Counted from the stretch's first letter, positions 13,432-30,113 are shown. The stretch is 64,000 nucleotides of DNA from an uncultured Candidatus Saccharibacteria bacterium (GCA_964611205.1 CAZSZB010000002.1:74609-138608), one strand, 5' to 3'. Numbers and translations: made by a program. Notes: generated from the sequence alone by a model not told the origin.

Positions 13432-13460
13432 ATATCGGGCCTATAGTTTAGTGGTAAGAA
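13432..13460 (+). repeat. duplicated 5' fragment of tRNA-Trp (about 29 nt)
   Basis: ATATCGGGCCTATAGTTTAGTGGTA(A)GAA is identical to 13591-13618. No 3' acceptor partner lies downstream, so it is not a complete tRNA. Confidence 0.7.
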
Positions 13461-13595
13461 ATTTGAAGGAACTTCAATTTCTTTCTTTCTGCTCTCACTC
13501 AAAAATGTAAGCAAGCTTCCATTTCTCTCGTATCGTTTGAAAGTAGAATTCCTATCGAGAAAACAGGTCTTGTACAGTTAACAAAAATAAATATC

Positions 13596-13666
13596 GGGCC
13601 TATAGTTTAGTGGTAGAATTCTGGTCTCCAAAACCAGCGGCCGTGGTTCGAGTCCACGTGGGCCCG
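13596..13666 (+). tRNA. tRNA-Trp (anticodon CCA)
   Basis: Acceptor GGGCCTA/TGGGCCC, anticodon stem CTGGT/ACCAG, loop CTCCAAA, T-loop GGTTCGAGTCC. Confidence 0.85.
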
Positions 13667-13676
13667 CCGAGGTAAA

Positions 13677-13711
13677 GAAAAAAGTCAAAGCATGTGCTTT
13701 GACTTTTTTCT
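13677..13711. terminator. terminator hairpin after tRNA-Trp
   Basis: AAAAAAGTCAAAGCA-tg-TGCTTTGACTTTTTT: an 11-13 bp perfect stem flanked by A and T runs, so it can act in both directions. Confidence 0.6.
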
Positions 13712-13920
13712 TTAGAAAGCAAACTTCTTTGCTTTCGTGCCTCGGCGGGAGCCGCAGACATGTTTCTGGCTCATTTCCTAGAGCCAGAAACGGTCGAGGG
13801 GGGGGTCGCGAGTACTTAGCAAAATATCTATGGGGTAGATATTTTGGTTAGTAACTCGTGACCGCAAGCGGGAGGGAGAACACTTGCTAGTTTATGAAAA
13901 TATGAAATGTAACTGAACCT

Positions 13921-14385
13921 CTACCAAGCACCACTGGCTCCACTATTTTTACTATCCTCCAAAGGATCGACTATTTTACCGCAGGTAACAGGCTCCCAAA
14001 CACCATAGTCACTGCCTGTTAAAGTCTTAATGATTGTGTCTACAATCACCCAAGCGGCCAACATAATAACAAAACCGATCAAAACATTGGTAATCATTTC
14101 TTTAGCTTTCTGCAGAGCACCCGGGTCCCCTCCTGAAGTCACCAATCTAAAGCCAGCAAAAACCAGTACGAACACCGCTACCAAAGTCATGATGGAAATA
14201 ATCCAAGCAATCACTCCATTAACCATGGCGAAGAAGGTACAGAAATTACAATCTGGACCACTGCAAGTTACTAAACCTTGAGCCTCATCTGCACCAACCG
14301 AAATTGGAATAATAAAAAATAAAGCGAGAACACTAAATAAAATAATTTGTCTCATATAATATCTGTATATGTTACACCAAACCAC
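13921..14385 (-). CDS. T4SS-pilin-like (TrbC/VirB2-like) small membrane protein, paralog of the 33360-34912 cluster
   Basis: A signal peptide (MRQIILFSVLALFFIIPISVGA) is followed by two hydrophobic helices separated by a short Gly-rich turn (AGFRLVTSGGDPGALQKAKEMITNVLIGFVIMLAAWVI). The architecture matches the other four paralogs. Confidence 0.45.
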   Translation of the reverse strand: MVWCNIYRYYMRQIILFSVLALFFIIPISVGADEAQGLVTCSGPDCNFCTFFAMVNGVIAWIISIMTLVAVFVLVFAGFRLVTSGGDPGALQKAKEMITNVLIGFVIMLAAWVIVDTIIKTLTGSDYGVWEPVTCGKIVDPLEDSKNSGASGAW

Positions 14386-14478
14386 CTCTACTTAAAACCA
14401 TAAGTTGCTTATAAACAAACCTTCAAGTCTTTGCTAACAACAGACAATATGGTACCTTATACGCCACACGAGTGTGAC

Positions 14479-14496
14479 GCGTCGGTGGCGGAGCGG
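14479..14496 (+). repeat. duplicated 5' fragment of tRNA-Tyr (18 nt)
   Basis: GCGTCGGTGGCGGAGCGG is identical to the first 18 nt of tRNA-Tyr at 14650. It is followed by an unrelated perfect 12-bp hairpin (ATGAAAAGTGAA...TTCACTTTTCAT). Confidence 0.7.
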
Positions 14497-14649
14497 ATGA
14501 AAAGTGAAAGACTTCACTTTTCATCCGGTCTGCGAACGATAGTGAGCAGATTGGTCGTTATGAGTAGAAGCGAAGCTCTACGAATAGACCAAAGGTGGAA
14601 ACGAGGTCCAATTTTCACCTTATAAATGTTTTAACGAAACTAAATAATT

Positions 14650-14732
14650 GCGTCGGTGGCGGAGCGGTCAATCGCGACGGACTGTAAATCCGTTGACTTA
14701 TGTCTACGCTGGTTCGAATCCAGCCCGGCGCA
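14650..14732 (+). tRNA. tRNA-Tyr (anticodon GTA), type II
   Basis: Acceptor GCGTCGG/CCGGCGC, anticodon stem ACGGA/TCCGT, loop CTGTAAA, long variable arm, T-loop GGTTCGAATCC. Confidence 0.85.
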
Positions 14733-14741
14733 CTTTCAAAG

Positions 14742-14776
14742 AAAATACCAGATCCTGTGTCTGGTATTTTCTTTTG
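14742..14776 (+). terminator. rho-independent terminator after tRNA-Tyr
   Basis: AAAATACCAGA-tcctgtg-TCTGGTATTTT followed by CTTTTG. Confidence 0.6.
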
Positions 14777-15049
14777 AACAATGGTCATGGATTCGAACGG
14801 GCGGAGAATCTTGTTCGAGCCGAGCCTACAAGCGCTTGGTAGAATTGAACGAAGTGAAAAAATATCCAATTTGGATACTGGTCATGTAATAACCAAAATT
14901 CCTGCCCAGCGCACACACGAAATCGTCACTATTTATCAGGACTTTTTCTTTAGGGCAGGATGGAGTTCGAACCTAAATGTCTATACTTTTTATAAATTAG
15001 TGGTATAGTAAGAGATAAATTTCTCTGTTCCTCAAGAAAAAGGTGACTC

Positions 15050-15649
15050 ATGCTACTTGCAGAAAAACGCATCCGCCTCGACCGAATCAGCGCTATGCAG
15101 GCTGACAATCACGTCCAACTTTACGACCACCCTCATTTGCCCAATGCTGACTATGAAGCTGTCAATGGTTCGGTCTTCCTGGCTGGACCAACTTCTAGAG
15201 AATGCATTGCTGAGTACAACTGGCGCAGCGAAGCCACCTATTACCTGCGTAAGCAGGGATTCAAGGGGGTGATTTACGTACCCGAACCTGGTAAATCGGG
15301 TATTGCTCGCAGCGGCGATTTCACCGAGAAGGAATTCATTCATCGCTGGGAGTCAGATCGGCTCCTTTCGGCCACCTATGTGGTGTTCTGGATTCCACGC
15401 AACAAGCACGAACTTCTCGGACTGAACACAAACCTCGAGTTCGGAATTTGGCTCGGGAAACTCTCACACCTACCACAAAAGGAACGGGTGCGAAAGCTGT
15501 TCATCGGCTGGCCTAATACTGCCGAGCGCATGGGGCTCCCCCGCCACTACGCTGCTGACCACCCTGAAACTGGTGGTTACCACATCTACGGCAGCCTGGA
15601 CAACCTGTGCGAAGCTATTCACATGACCCATACCAACCACAACACCTGA
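15050..15649 (+). CDS. hypothetical protein on a high-GC island; weakly nucleoside 2-deoxyribosyltransferase-like
   Basis: 199 aa. The VFLAGPTS motif resembles the xYLAGP motif of the N-deoxyribosyltransferase-like Rossmann fold. GC is visibly higher than the flanks. The functional call is weak. Confidence 0.3.
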   Translation: MLLAEKRIRLDRISAMQADNHVQLYDHPHLPNADYEAVNGSVFLAGPTSRECIAEYNWRSEATYYLRKQGFKGVIYVPEPGKSGIARSGDFTEKEFIHRWESDRLLSATYVVFWIPRNKHELLGLNTNLEFGIWLGKLSHLPQKERVRKLFIGWPNTAERMGLPRHYAADHPETGGYHIYGSLDNLCEAIHMTHTNHNT

Positions 15650-29135: not shown

Positions 29136-29200
29136 TCCACAAAAGCTTTTTAAGTCCTGACGAACAGTCCCCCGGACTGTTCTATGTACGACAAAATTTT

Positions 29201-29222
29201 GTCCGCCCACCAGGACTTGAAC
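29201..29222 (-). repeat. duplicated 3' fragment (T-arm plus acceptor) of tRNA-Lys, about 155 nt downstream of the gene on the minus strand
   Basis: GTCCGCCCACCAGGACTTGAAC is identical to 29356-29377. Confidence 0.7.
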
Positions 29223-29355
29223 TCTACGAGTTCTGTACAGGTTGTCAGTATTTTGTTTCCTTACGTCACAAAATACTAGGCAACCTTTTCGAGTCACGCC
29301 ACGGATTACTAACGTAATCCTGCTCTGGTGGGTGTCCACCTCACTTCGTTCGCTG

Positions 29356-29428
29356 TCCGCCCACCAGGACTTGAACCTGGGACACAAGGATTAAGAGTCC
29401 TCTGCTCTACCAGCTGAGCTATAGGCGG
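29356..29428 (-). tRNA. tRNA-Lys (anticodon CTT)
   Basis: Reverse complement is CCGCCTATAGCTCAGCTGGTAGAGCAGAGGACTCTTAATCCTTGTGTCCCAGGTTCAAGTCCTGGTGGGCGGA. It has the canonical D-arm, anticodon stem GAGGA/TCCTT, loop CTCTTAA, and T-arm CCAGG/CCTGG. The acceptor pair 1 is C-G, which is unusual, so the 5' boundary is uncertain by 1 nt. Confidence 0.7.
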
Positions 29429-29534
29429 ATAATGGTGTTGAGAGTTTACAGTATTGTAGGGTCAATTTCAAGAAAGTTTTAAACCACAACCTATATCTTG
29501 TCAGACTTAAATATAGGTTTTTCTCTTTATTTTG

Positions 29535-29607
29535 AGTCCTGGGTGGGATTCGAACCCACGCGTGTCGGTTTTGCAAACCGATGCGTTAACCGCTTCGCCA
29601 CCAGGAC
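29535..29607 (-). tRNA. tRNA-Cys (anticodon GCA)
   Basis: Reverse complement is GTCCTGGTGGCGAAGCGGTTAACGCATCGGTTTGCAAAACCGACACGCGTGGGTTCGAATCCCACCCAGGACT. Anticodon stem TCGGT/ACCGA, loop TTGCAAA, discriminator U. Confidence 0.8.
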
Positions 29608-29728
29608 TTTTATAAGCCATACTTTACCATCTACTACTTACTAAACCAAGCTTTTATGCTATGATATCCGCCACATACTGAGTGGATAGAGATTAGTCTA
29701 TCTGGTTCAGTCATAAACAAATATTGAA

Positions 29729-29800
29729 GCCAAGATGGTGGAATTGGTAGGTGAAACAGTCTGGGAGATTGTTTTACCAGGACTTAAACTTTAAGTGCTG
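29729..29800 (+). pseudogene. degenerate pseudo-tRNA-Leu(TAA) 5' copy (unit A3) with a palindromic hairpin insert after the D-loop
   Basis: GCCAAGATGGTGGAATTGGTAG (the real gene has GCCGGGATGGTGGAATTGGTAG) is followed by hairpin GGTGAAACAGTCT-GGGA-GATTGTTTTACC, then an ACTTAAAC anticodon-loop-like segment. There is no 3' half. Confidence 0.65.
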
Positions 29801-29838
29801 CATCTACCTGTTCTACCATTTGTATACAGAACATATAT

Positions 29839-29920
29839 GCCGGGATGGTGGAATTGGTAGACACGCAGCACTTAAACTGCTGTGAGGCAACTCGTGCGGG
29901 TTCAAGTCCCGCTCCCGGCA
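29839..29920 (+). tRNA. tRNA-Leu (anticodon TAA), type II
   Basis: Acceptor GCCGGGA/TCCCGGC, D-arm GGTGGAATTGGTAGACACGC, anticodon stem CAGCA/TGCTG with loop CTTAAAC, variable arm GAGGCAACTC, T-loop GGGTTCAAGTCCC. Confidence 0.85.
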
Positions 29921-29922
29921 CA

Positions 29923-29950
29923 AAGAAGACCCGCGTATGCGGGTTTTTGT
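29923..29950 (+). terminator. rho-independent terminator after tRNA-Leu(TAA)
   Basis: AAGACCCGC-gtat-GCGGGTTTTTGT. Confidence 0.65.
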
Positions 29951-30064
29951 CCGCTGGGAGAGTAAAGTCCGGGGGACTTTGTGTCGGGTCTTGAAAAGGT
30001 TGCTTGATATTTTATGAGCGACAGCGAAATAAAATACAAATAACCTGTACAGAATATGTAATAT

Positions 30065-30113
30065 TCAAGTCCCGCTCCCGGCACAAAGAAGACCCGCCTA
30101 GGCGGGTCTTTTT
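30065..30113 (+). repeat. duplicated 3' end of tRNA-Leu(TAA) plus its terminator
   Basis: TTCAAGTCCCGCTCCCGGCACAAAGAAGACCCGC-ctag-GCGGGTCTTTTT differs from 29901-29947 only in the terminator loop (gtat versus ctag). Confidence 0.75.

Follow-up and report, generated by a model that had tools for sequence, protein, structure and literature searches.

Why should the tRNA genes of one bacterial chromosome be accompanied by pieces of themselves? The question is raised by a 64-kb stretch of DNA (CAZSZB010000002.1:74609-138608 of assembly GCA_964611205.1; hereafter the window, whose coordinates are used throughout). An earlier note made from its sequence alone had listed partial copies of tRNA ends close to their genes and ascribed them to repeated insertion and excision of small elements, in the manner of integrase-borne islands and phages. 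We followed these copies through the window and through related genomes. In our reading, to which we assign a probability of about 0.55, the fragments stem from the tRNA and form the ends of small (about 90-190 nucleotides, nt), non-coding, single-strand-structured elements located beside tRNA genes of Paceibacteria, which would be non-autonomous, enter by duplication and have their structure kept by selection. The family is apparently uncatalogued and widespread in Paceibacteria.

Six of the nine tRNAs in the window have nearby copies of their own ends

Judged by its genes, the window is a chromosome segment of Patescibacteria (the candidate phyla radiation, CPR; Paceibacteria) from a species that is not among the representative genomes. 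The closest IF-2 sequences belong to Kaiserbacteria, Nomurabacteria and other Paceibacteria metagenome-assembled genomes (at most 71% in species-representative genomes and at most 76% in JGI metagenomes). The encoded proteins are mostly housekeeping (IF-2, RbfA, MiaA, TopA, GyrA, FtsZ, SerRS and others), accompanied by several PF18895 pilins and one LAGLIDADG open reading frame (ORF); besides nine genes for tRNAs, there is one for a bacterial RNase P RNA. A plastid, considered at first as the source, was rejected on account of gene content and RNase P RNA.

Copies of each tRNA were located by our own k-mer scan of the window. Six of the nine tRNAs (Trp, Tyr, Leu-TAG, Lys, Leu-TAA and Glu) have copies of their own ends at a distance of 40-250 nt, which are exact over 17-32 nt or match at 45/48 positions, whereas the scan found none for Leu-CAA, Cys and Val. 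The statement that nearly every tRNA is shadowed in this way thus amounts to six of nine. All six items listed at the time are present, either where they had been placed or a few bases off. The Tyr 5' copy (14479-14496, 18/18), the Lys 3' copy (29200-29222, 23/23) and the Leu-TAA 3' copy with its terminator (30064-30111, 45/48) were recovered as described, and so was the inverted Glu copy (51907-51919, 13/13, plus 51870-51881, 12/12), whose palindrome piece is the a' segment of an element (see below). The Trp 5' copy, given as 29 nt, is exact over 25/25 positions at 13432-13456 and reaches 29 nt only if a 1-nt shift is allowed. Both Leu-TAG copies described as 3' copies are exact (28983-29003, 21/21; 29023-29054, 32/32), but the latter corresponds to tRNA positions 36-67 and not to the 3' end. 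Further copies had escaped listing: a Leu-TAG 5' copy (28722-28745, 24/24) and a degenerate one (28651-28672), a Leu-TAG variable-arm copy (28783-28804, 22/22), a Leu-TAA 5' copy (29734-29750, 17/17), a Glu 5' part (52259-52313, 78% over 55 nt) and a degenerate Tyr 3' copy (14899-14914). The Tyr 18-mer and the Leu-TAA 17-mer each occur exactly twice in the window, where 100 shuffles predict zero.

The copies are not an assembly artefact, because an independent 166-kb ENA contig is identical to the window over the region tested, and six Logan contigs from other samples are 99.5-100% identical to it as far as they reach. Among seven contigs with identical RbfA (99.5-100% identity) there was no indel, and several of them end inside repeats. 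Several of the same-species Logan contigs (L082-L087; L-numbers are locus labels) stop inside the repeated tRNA-Leu(TAG) region, near 28840-28925. That several short-read contigs end there indicates that the tRNA fragments break assemblies.

Copies and elements recur beside tRNA genes of related genomes

For comparison, 160 loci around infB were taken from species-representative genomes and metagenomes, giving, together with the window, 161 sources and 465 tRNAs. An exact self-copy of at least 14 nt was present within 400 nt downstream of 57/465 tRNAs, and in 52 of these 57 cases it represented the 3'-terminal part. Upstream self-copies of at least 14 nt within 400 nt accompanied 8/465 tRNAs, five of them in the window. 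Control stretches 1500-1900 nt away from the 465 tRNAs contained no copies. The exact 3' copies (14-32 nt) start at tRNA positions 53-61, with a mode at C56, and end at the discriminator, past which a median of 4 and a maximum of 47 further bases match. The 5' copies end at tRNA positions 13-27, mostly at 18-22 in the D-loop.

Covariance models of two core classes (R1 for class 1, R2 for class 2; see below) gave 56 and 48 matches, 104 in total, in 937 kb. At most 300 nt downstream of a same-strand tRNA lay 48/56 R1 and 42/48 R2 matches, that is 90/104, where about 4.8% would be expected from the area. The median gap between tRNA and element is 52-60 nt, and most matches that are not tRNA-linked are second tandem copies or lie at contig ends. 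Nine further class-1 matches were found in 60 more distant loci. Among the tRNA genes sampled, about one in three has such a structured element (about 90-190 nt) beside it. Distant copies bounding a large island were seen in a single locus, L060, at 726 nt. A pattern search for carriage by phages returned no match to the class-1 pattern and five chance matches to the class-2 pattern, in high-GC coding DNA with no tRNAs nearby.

The copies form the ends of small elements with a common plan

Reading the DNA between gene and copy in 37 cases revealed recurrent sequence classes with a common order. In tRNA sense, the intact tRNA is followed by a spacer (a terminator hairpin or a GA-rich loop), an optional segment a', the hairpin P2, a segment t', the core and the direct tRNA 3' copy. 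Segment a', located 5' of P2 and present in many elements, is the complement of the acceptor 3' strand. Segment t', with which every class starts, is the reverse complement of the T-stem 3' strand and T-loop of the adjacent tRNA (for example GAGAGGACTCGAA versus ttcgagtcctctc); in most elements it lies 5' of the 3' copy and varies with tRNA identity (Leu, Cys, Lys, Tyr). The terminal copy runs from the T-loop (positions 53-61, mostly C56) to the discriminator and sometimes on into the terminator. The elements have about 90-190 nt and no ORF, and the only inverted repeat within them is that of a'/t' against the duplicated tRNA segment from T-loop to 3' end.

Single-sequence folds gave the same arrangement each time: a'/t' pair with the downstream copy, P2 is bulged out, and a three-way-junction core stands at the place of the T-loop. 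The element thus resembles the acceptor/T-stem half of a tRNA in which the T-loop is replaced by the core. A 7-bp acceptor-like helix with a 3' discriminator sits on a T-stem-like helix in many folds but is absent where a' is missing (L025, L080, L150). The T-loop bases are paired with t' or P5, leaving no free T-loop elbow of the tRNA-like kind. Often, the tRNA 3' part and a'/t' form the arms of a long hairpin, and the spacer between tRNA and a' is located at its tip.

The core consists of two hairpins that make a three-way junction, and several core classes fill the same slot. In class 1, P3 is followed by GAA(A), then by a long P4, (G)UAC(U/A)G and P5 with a GUA triloop. The parts of class 2 are a short stem (GCC/GGC), an internal loop (GGAG/GAG), a variable hairpin and, prolonged by a covarying hairpin, the invariant stem GGUCG/UGACC. 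Classes 3 and 4 seem to be related to class 2. Hairpin loops recurring in distant genomes are GA loops of the GAGCGAAGCGAA type and P2 loops of the CUGC or CUGGGAG type. The 5' copies represent the mirror case: the sequence from the upstream flank to the D-loop (18-22) is duplicated in Trp, Tyr, Leu-TAG and Leu-TAA, with a hairpin directly after it. The Glu 5' copy is nearly the whole 5' part of a pseudo-tRNA, followed by a core at position 53/54.

Two further observations concern P2 and a'. An 18-20-nt P2 sequence (AGCAAACTGCTTTGCT plus flanks) is identical in distant genomes (L033, L035, L046, L050, L139, L163; in the window at 13716-13737 and 52222-52241), a conservation far above that of the surrounding element. 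Segment a' is mostly imperfect relative to the acceptor 3' strand at the second to fourth pair (e.g. GCUGGGA for GCCGGGA), giving a wobble or mismatch near the top of the helix; this deviation was seen in the a' segments of the window and in L003, L042, L054, L062, L073 and L097.

Compensatory changes support a conserved single-strand fold

RNAalifold showed compensatory changes in 15/18 pairs of class 1 and 12/17 pairs of class 2. For class 1 (56 matches), 91.3% of cells were paired, compared to 60.7% in shuffles and 27-49% in slid controls; for class 2 (48 matches), the value was 95.7% compared to 71.7% in shuffles, slid controls of both classes ranging from 27 to 55%; and the covariation score was 0.73 versus 0.21 in shuffles for class 1 and 0.58 versus 0.17 for class 2, all of these figures being somewhat inflated, as the covariance-model alignments of the 56 and 48 matches are fitted to the models. 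One G-U pair is kept in 40/48 class-2 matches, and G-U outnumbers A-C in class-1 stems (47 versus 19), which points to the tRNA-sense strand as the folding strand. Folds of three loci of the window (Tyr, Leu-TAG, Leu-TAA) reached z-scores of -9.2 to -10.3.

In the tRNA-Cys elements of L062, L068 and L150, core and copy are kept, and the variable stem differs with its pairing kept; L062 and L068 share about 82% DNA identity. Recent origin, one of two causes that the earlier note had offered for the exactness of the copies, is hence not supported as its sole explanation. The companion suggestion that the fragments are functional finds support in so far as each pairs with a complementary segment in a covarying single-stranded structure, but nothing speaks specifically for a decoy processing substrate or a promoter element. 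Of the Rfam 15 families, tRNA and RNase P alone attain the gathering score within the window, and permissive searches returned nothing credible at E ≤ 10 for the tRNA regions of the window or at E ≤ 1 for five loci with classes 2-4. No description of these elements was found in the searchable literature, where group I introns in the tRNA anticodon loops of Patescibacteria (PMC13011429) and theta ribozymes behind phage tRNAs (PMC10879173) come closest. A promoter and terminator scan gave counts equal to those of shuffles and was uninformative.

Occupancy of tRNA genes varies among relatives

In L127 and L133, the genes for tRNA-Cys, Leu-TAA, Lys and Leu-TAG are packed into a single co-oriented operon, 11-56 nt apart and free of elements. 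Where relatives carry elements, these four genes are dispersed, with changes of order and orientation, and which tRNA carries an element, and of which class, varies. The proposal that tRNA loci act as hotspots at which small inserts settle, a tRNA end being duplicated while one gene stays intact, is thus supported: across genomes, presence, class and gene order vary, and two loci are insert-free. The high-GC islands that had been noted next to the tRNA genes belong to the inserts as well, namely as class-2 and class-4 cores. The framing by integrases and genomic islands is not supported, as the inserts are about 90-190 nt long without an ORF, and a Pfam scan of 48 ORFs found no integrase, transposase or reverse transcriptase in the 64 kb; a recombinase is likewise missing from the inserts, which contain no ORF. 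The earlier interpretation is right in spirit (small inserts at tRNA hotspots) and wrong in mechanism (they are neither islands nor integrase scars). The window encodes DprA at 4275-5150.

Several loci bear on how the slot is filled. L045 has a B-C-B arrangement with a unit of about 135 nt, in which B extends from the T-loop across the tRNA end, P2 and t' to where the core starts, and C is what remains of the core; a circular or tandem unit recombining via a homologous arm would be expected to give such a product. Between the tRNA and a 3' copy starting in the T-loop, L074 carries a GIY-YIG nuclease-like ORF (7759-8072) and L060 an aspartate (Asp/Glu) racemase-like gene (279-1003), and the slot therefore accepts other cargo. 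Upstream of tRNA-Leu(TAG) in the window, an older, diverged 5' copy with the same hairpin architecture lies farther out, and the older and newer copies are what serial insertions would leave. Two class-1 copies 700 nt apart have opposite orientations, each following its own tRNA, and the two intact class-1 cores of the window (64 kb only) are alignable and clearly diverged.

Element-bearing loci of the window

The features below lie on the plus strand unless marked (-). At the Trp locus, the 5' copy (13420-13456) comprises upstream flank, with similarity from 13420, and tRNA positions 1-21, with its end lying within the D-loop. The insert between this copy and the gene (13457-13595) contains an AU-rich hairpin (13457-13482) and a T-rich run, and it ends with ...TTGTACAG and the re-created upstream flank. 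The intact tRNA-Trp(CCA) (13596-13668) is followed by a class-2 element (13716-13881) with the P2 hairpin at 13716-13737, a core GGGGTCGCG...CTCGTGAC and a decayed 3' copy (CGCAAGCGGGAGGG). Positions 13740-13749 of this element are complementary to the tRNA 3' end and trailer (13663-13672). Its R2 match (13747-13881, E 2.6e-9) concerns a sequence that belonged to the R2 training set. The element is close to the Leu-TAA element of L094, and its P2 sequence recurs in L035 and L050.

The Tyr 5' copy (14479-14496) covers tRNA positions 1-18 and ends at G18/G19 of the D-loop. The insert that follows (14497-14649) is a series of hairpins with two GA-rich loops of the GAACGATAGTGA / AGCGAAGC type. 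Downstream of the intact tRNA-Tyr(GTA) (14650-14733) lies an element with a hybrid core (14783-14914), which starts with t' (14783-14798; GGTCATGGATTCGAAC, the complement of the T-loop and T-stem 3' strand) and contains a P5-like hairpin and the degenerate 3' copy (14899-14914, 13/16). It is matched by R1 at 14839-14914 (E 5.7e-4) and weakly by R2 at 14788-14914 (E 0.27), and the fold of 14474-14918 has a z-score of -9.19.

The Leu-TAG locus is nested. Outermost is the oldest 5' pseudo-copy with a 12-bp hairpin (28651-28699, repeat family D1), consisting of the degenerate copy (28651-28672) and the hairpin (28673-28699), whose loop is the reverse complement of the loop of the next hairpin. The 5' side of an outer scaffold (28722-28851) follows with an acceptor 5' strand and D-arm (28722-28745), a hairpin in place of the anticodon arm (28746-28772), the variable-arm copy (28783-28804), a second hairpin in place of the T-loop (28805-28827) and the 5' arm of P4 (28831-28851). 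The intact tRNA-Leu(TAG) (28859-28941) lies within the P4 loop of this scaffold, whose 3' side (28947-29003) comprises the P4 3' arm (28947-28965), an ATACAG junction, P5 (28971-28985) and the 3' copy (28983-29003). In the fold of 28720-29005 (z -9.27), the 5' copy pairs with the 3' copy to form an outer acceptor-like helix, and the real tRNA sits in the loop of the P4-like stem made by 28831-28851 and 28947-28965. R1 matches this scaffold at 28903-29003 (E 0.003). An internal Leu-TAG fragment (29023-29054), reaching from anticodon loop to T-loop, follows.

On the opposite strand, the intact tRNA-Lys(CTT) (29355-29428, (-)) is followed by an intact class-1 element (29201-29354, (-)) with a GA-loop spacer (29340-29354), a' (29325-29339), P2 (29303-29320), t' (29288-29299), a P4/P5 core and the 3' copy (29201-29222); its R1 match (29201-29299, (-), 73 bits) comes from the training set. 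A second, degenerate class-1 element (29075-29200, (-)) stands in tandem behind the Lys 3' copy, with a P2-like GAACAGTCCGGGGGACTGTTC, a t'-like CAGGACTTAAA and the P4 loop GAGCAACAGCGAA, matched by R1 at 29075-29160 (-) with E 0.015.

Upstream of tRNA-Leu(TAA), an insert (29729-29838) comprises the 5' pseudo-copy (29729-29750), a hairpin (29751-29777), a t'-like GGACTTAAA, an inverted copy of the anticodon stem-loop (29790-29801) and ...GTATACAGAA; its fold has a z-score of -10.31. The intact gene (29839-29921) is followed by an intact class-1 element (29928-30113) with terminator (29928-29949), a' (29950-29960), P2 (29961-29982), t' (29983-29995), a P4/P5 core and the 3' copy (30064-30084). 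Its terminator is duplicated at 30085-30113 (repeat D9), where two substitutions add one base pair, and its R1 match (29984-30084, 91 bits) was in the training set.

At the Glu locus, the intact tRNA-Glu(TTC) (51976-52048, (-)) lies between two inserts. Downstream, a class-4-like element (51748-51916, (-)) consists of a' (51907-51916), P2 (51884-51905), t' (51870-51883), a core ending in GGGGAC and a 3' copy decayed to GATT...; it gave an R2 match (51748-51879, (-), E 0.0017) from outside the training set. Located 5' of the real gene is a pseudo-tRNA-Glu with a T-loop insert (52069-52313, (-), repeat D8), comprising the 5' part through the T-stem 5' strand (52259-52313), a long hairpin (52204-52258) and a class-2 core (52069-52203) at tRNA position 53/54, with the 3' part decayed. 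This core, too, lies outside the training set and is matched by R2 at 52069-52203 (-) with E 1.2e-8. Apart from the shared P2 hairpin, blastn-short detected no relatives of the upstream inserts of the window.

Other features of the window

Two tRNAs without small elements have ORFs close by. A LAGLIDADG_3-domain ORF (11013-11660 (+)) lies 100 nt 3' of tRNA-Leu(CAA), and a 228-amino-acid ORF without a Pfam match (57535-58221 (+)), unrelated to the 11013-11660 protein, ends 2 nt 5' of tRNA-Val. Three PF18895 'T4SS pilin' paralogues are encoded at 13921-14385 (-), 33360-33695 (-) and 33750-34133 (-), one of them between the Trp and Tyr element clusters. The RNase P RNA (class A, 55805-56216 (+)) scores 121 bits against a gathering score of 100 and is thus a divergent member. 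Upstream of tsaD, a putative structured RNA (about 170 nt), closed by a stem of 14 bp (GUUCGCAGGAGGAU / AUCCUCCUGCGAAC) and followed by a terminator, lies at 59246-59465 (+) (fold z -4.6; no Rfam match at E ≤ 1). A 1960-amino-acid ORF without a Pfam domain (16515-22397 (+)) contains a 102-nt tandem duplication (16770-16846 and 16872-16948; 86% identity). A 34-nt perfect palindrome occurs twice, at 1878-1911 and 13316-13349, with the common centre CACTATCATATATGATAGTG and 88% identity, terminator-like and after genes. A second shared hairpin family (AACCTTTCATTCGAATGRAAGAT) is found at 28524-28569 and 51626-51671.

Origin and maintenance of the elements

We propose that an element would enter a tRNA gene by duplicative recombination through its tRNA-derived arm, either as Campbell-type ('ends-in') recombination or by unequal exchange, always resulting in one intact gene and an outer partial copy. 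No element-encoded enzyme would be involved, and host recombination together with DNA uptake would suffice. Afterwards, selection on the transcribed strand would keep the structure, most simply as an RNA co-transcribed with the tRNA.

Besides the inflation of the covariation figures, several points weigh against this proposal. Host recombination alone does not explain the conserved structured core, nor how t'/a' come to match a new tRNA. Insertion itself is inferred and was not seen, because no filled and empty pair of close genomes was found (nearest relatives at most 76% in IF-2; same-species contigs without indel). The sampling was centred on infB and covers mainly Cys, Leu and Lys tRNAs. 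Not every element has the acceptor-like helix, a' being absent in L025, L080 and L150. Where copy and real tRNA differ, t' fits the real tRNA better in 9 cases, the copy in 3 and both equally in 10, so that the meaningful partner of t' may be the tRNA itself. L090 has two elements with a common core and 3' flank, yet each t'/a' fits its own tRNA. Taken together, the fit of t' to the real tRNA, the L090 pair and the hairpins with the spacer at their tip show both the tRNA itself and the copy to be possible pairing partners of t'/a'. The structure could also be read in single-stranded DNA rather than in RNA.

Among the alternatives, we regard it as unlikely that the elements are host-beneficial cis modules on tRNA transcripts, providing an entry point for RNase P or RNase Z or a duplex for RNase III and also insulating or terminating the unit, in replacement of the neighbour tRNA of a compact operon. 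Such modules would fit the constant co-orientation and closeness to the tRNA (median gap 52-60 nt), the hairpin and T-run that most sequences form just after the copy (by reading, not by systematic count), the acceptor-like helix with discriminator overhang in many folds, the single tight operon of four tRNAs in element-free genomes and the persistence of elements at tRNA-Cys in related genomes. However, the elements are patchy among tRNAs and genomes, several unrelated cores occupy the same slot, tandem, nested and decayed copies are common, many elements stand behind a terminator, a' is optional, and a simple processing signal needs no conserved three-way junction. More doubtful still is an origin of the repeats as attL/attR scars, in which a tyrosine recombinase crossing over in the T-loop, or rarely near the D-loop, integrates circles with a tRNA fragment, so that the inserts would be leftovers of islands or miniatures moved in trans. 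The T-loop is a classic sublocation of tRNA-targeting integrases, and the T-loop-start duplication matches it, reaching to the tRNA 3' end and keeping one intact gene; the larger cargo in the same slot (racemase gene in L060, GIY-YIG ORF in L074) would also agree. On the other hand, neither the window nor any insert encodes an integrase, the inserts are conserved covarying classes in many genomes and not random remnants, the bases 5' of the copy are, in the examples read, core hairpins unlike a T-stem half-site, and the t'/a' complement has no role in that model.

Slim, too, is the chance that the cores represent small ribozymes of a new kind, or else mobile elements that are guided by RNA or resemble introns, in which t' is an internal guide to the target T-loop and the core-copy junction the site of cleavage or ligation. 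Self-cleaving ribozyme classes are known to place different compact junction structures in an equivalent position, and the elements likewise have different compact junctions with invariant unpaired bases in one position; the 3' strand is continuous from the core helix into the t' helix, as in a substrate-strand geometry, and the guide-like t' matches each tRNA. Group I introns are, furthermore, frequent in Patescibacteria tRNA genes (PMC13011429). Against this, no Rfam ribozyme or intron matched at E ≤ 1 (class-2/3/4 loci) or E ≤ 10 (tRNA regions of the window), the window encodes no reverse transcriptase, the adjoining intact tRNA makes splicing unneeded, and hammerhead and HDV (hepatitis delta virus) topologies misfit: class 1 as a hammerhead and class 2 as an HDV fold were mapped by hand and rejected for the order and length of the junction strands. 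An equally slim chance attaches to the boldest reading, an enzyme-free or ribozyme-based mobile RNA/DNA parasite of a new kind that would home to the T-loop, which is universally conserved, (and to the D-loop) of tRNA genes by t'/a' guide pairing, with core classes that would be new small catalytic or protein-recruiting RNAs and with B-C-B as the integrated, longer-than-unit copy of a circle of about 135 nt serving as intermediate. That tRNA genes were simply duplicated in tandem and then decayed at random, with neither element nor selection, is barely credible. Pseudo-tRNA parts with recognisable arms do exist 5' of Glu (78% identity) and around Leu-TAG, but decay would not swap arms for perfect covarying hairpins, create a T-loop complement, put the same cores beside different tRNAs in many genomes or keep one G-U pair, and it is always the outer piece that is well kept; the data on covariation and recurrence already contradict this explanation.

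Relation to known systems

With tRNA-targeting integrative elements (phages, islands, integrative and conjugative elements), the family shares insertion at the T-loop, a duplication that reaches the 3' end or goes past it and the restoration of one intact gene, and a direct repeat of the tRNA 3' part bounds the inserts in the same manner. It differs in its size of about 90-190 nt, the lack of an integrase, the inverted complement of the duplicated piece, the covarying core and the 5' mirror form at the D-loop. Miniature inverted-repeat transposable elements (MITEs), cis-mobilisable elements and palindromic elements derived from IS200/IS605 are likewise small, non-coding, hairpin-rich, patchy and present in many copies per genome; unlike MITE-like elements, those described here have no short fixed target duplication and no classic terminal inverted repeats, their copies within a genome are not near-identical, and they target a single structural position in tRNA genes.

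Plant mitochondrial t-elements, mascRNA, bacterial YrlA and the tRNA-like domain of transfer-messenger RNA resemble the elements in an acceptor-like helix with discriminator overhang on a T-stem-like helix and in the possible use of tRNA-processing enzymes. In the present elements, known from sequence and folds, the T-loop is instead paired and replaced by a three-way junction, the helix has the sequence of the neighbouring tRNA, and a' is optional. Non-canonical and mobile tRNA introns and the permuted and split tRNA genes of Archaea and red algae also involve short structured inserts at the T-loop or D-loop, and our tandems could be read as permuted genes; here, however, the host is bacterial, and an intact copy of the same tRNA adjoins, so that splicing is unneeded. 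No bulge-helix-bulge motif was recognised on reading the folds, a dedicated search not having been run. Theta ribozymes, minimal HDV-like ribozymes downstream of phage tRNAs (PMC10879173), are small structured RNAs directly 3' of and co-oriented with tRNA genes as well, whereas our elements match no HDV-family model, are set off from the tRNA by a spacer or terminator and have a tRNA 3' copy at their end. The group I introns of Patescibacteria (PMC13011429) are structured inserts in tRNA genes of the same phylum, but they lie in the anticodon loop, interrupt the sole gene copy and match group I models, none of which applies to the elements.

Implications for Paceibacteria and the CPR

CPR bacteria make up a large share of bacterial diversity, and in their tiny genomes every intergenic base is expected to count. 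The elements described here mimic and at the same time complement part of a tRNA. If they are RNAs, they would represent at least two well-supported new RNA classes with conserved junctions and, for organisms with few RNases, raise questions on tRNA maturation or tRNA-directed regulation. Should they be mobile, they would be parasites of unusually small size, occupying the structural positions that are most conserved in tRNA genes, and would explain the reshuffled tRNA clusters and the assembly breaks found there. In either case, R1 and R2 permit a census in any CPR genome and flag spots that are error-prone for tRNA annotation and binning.

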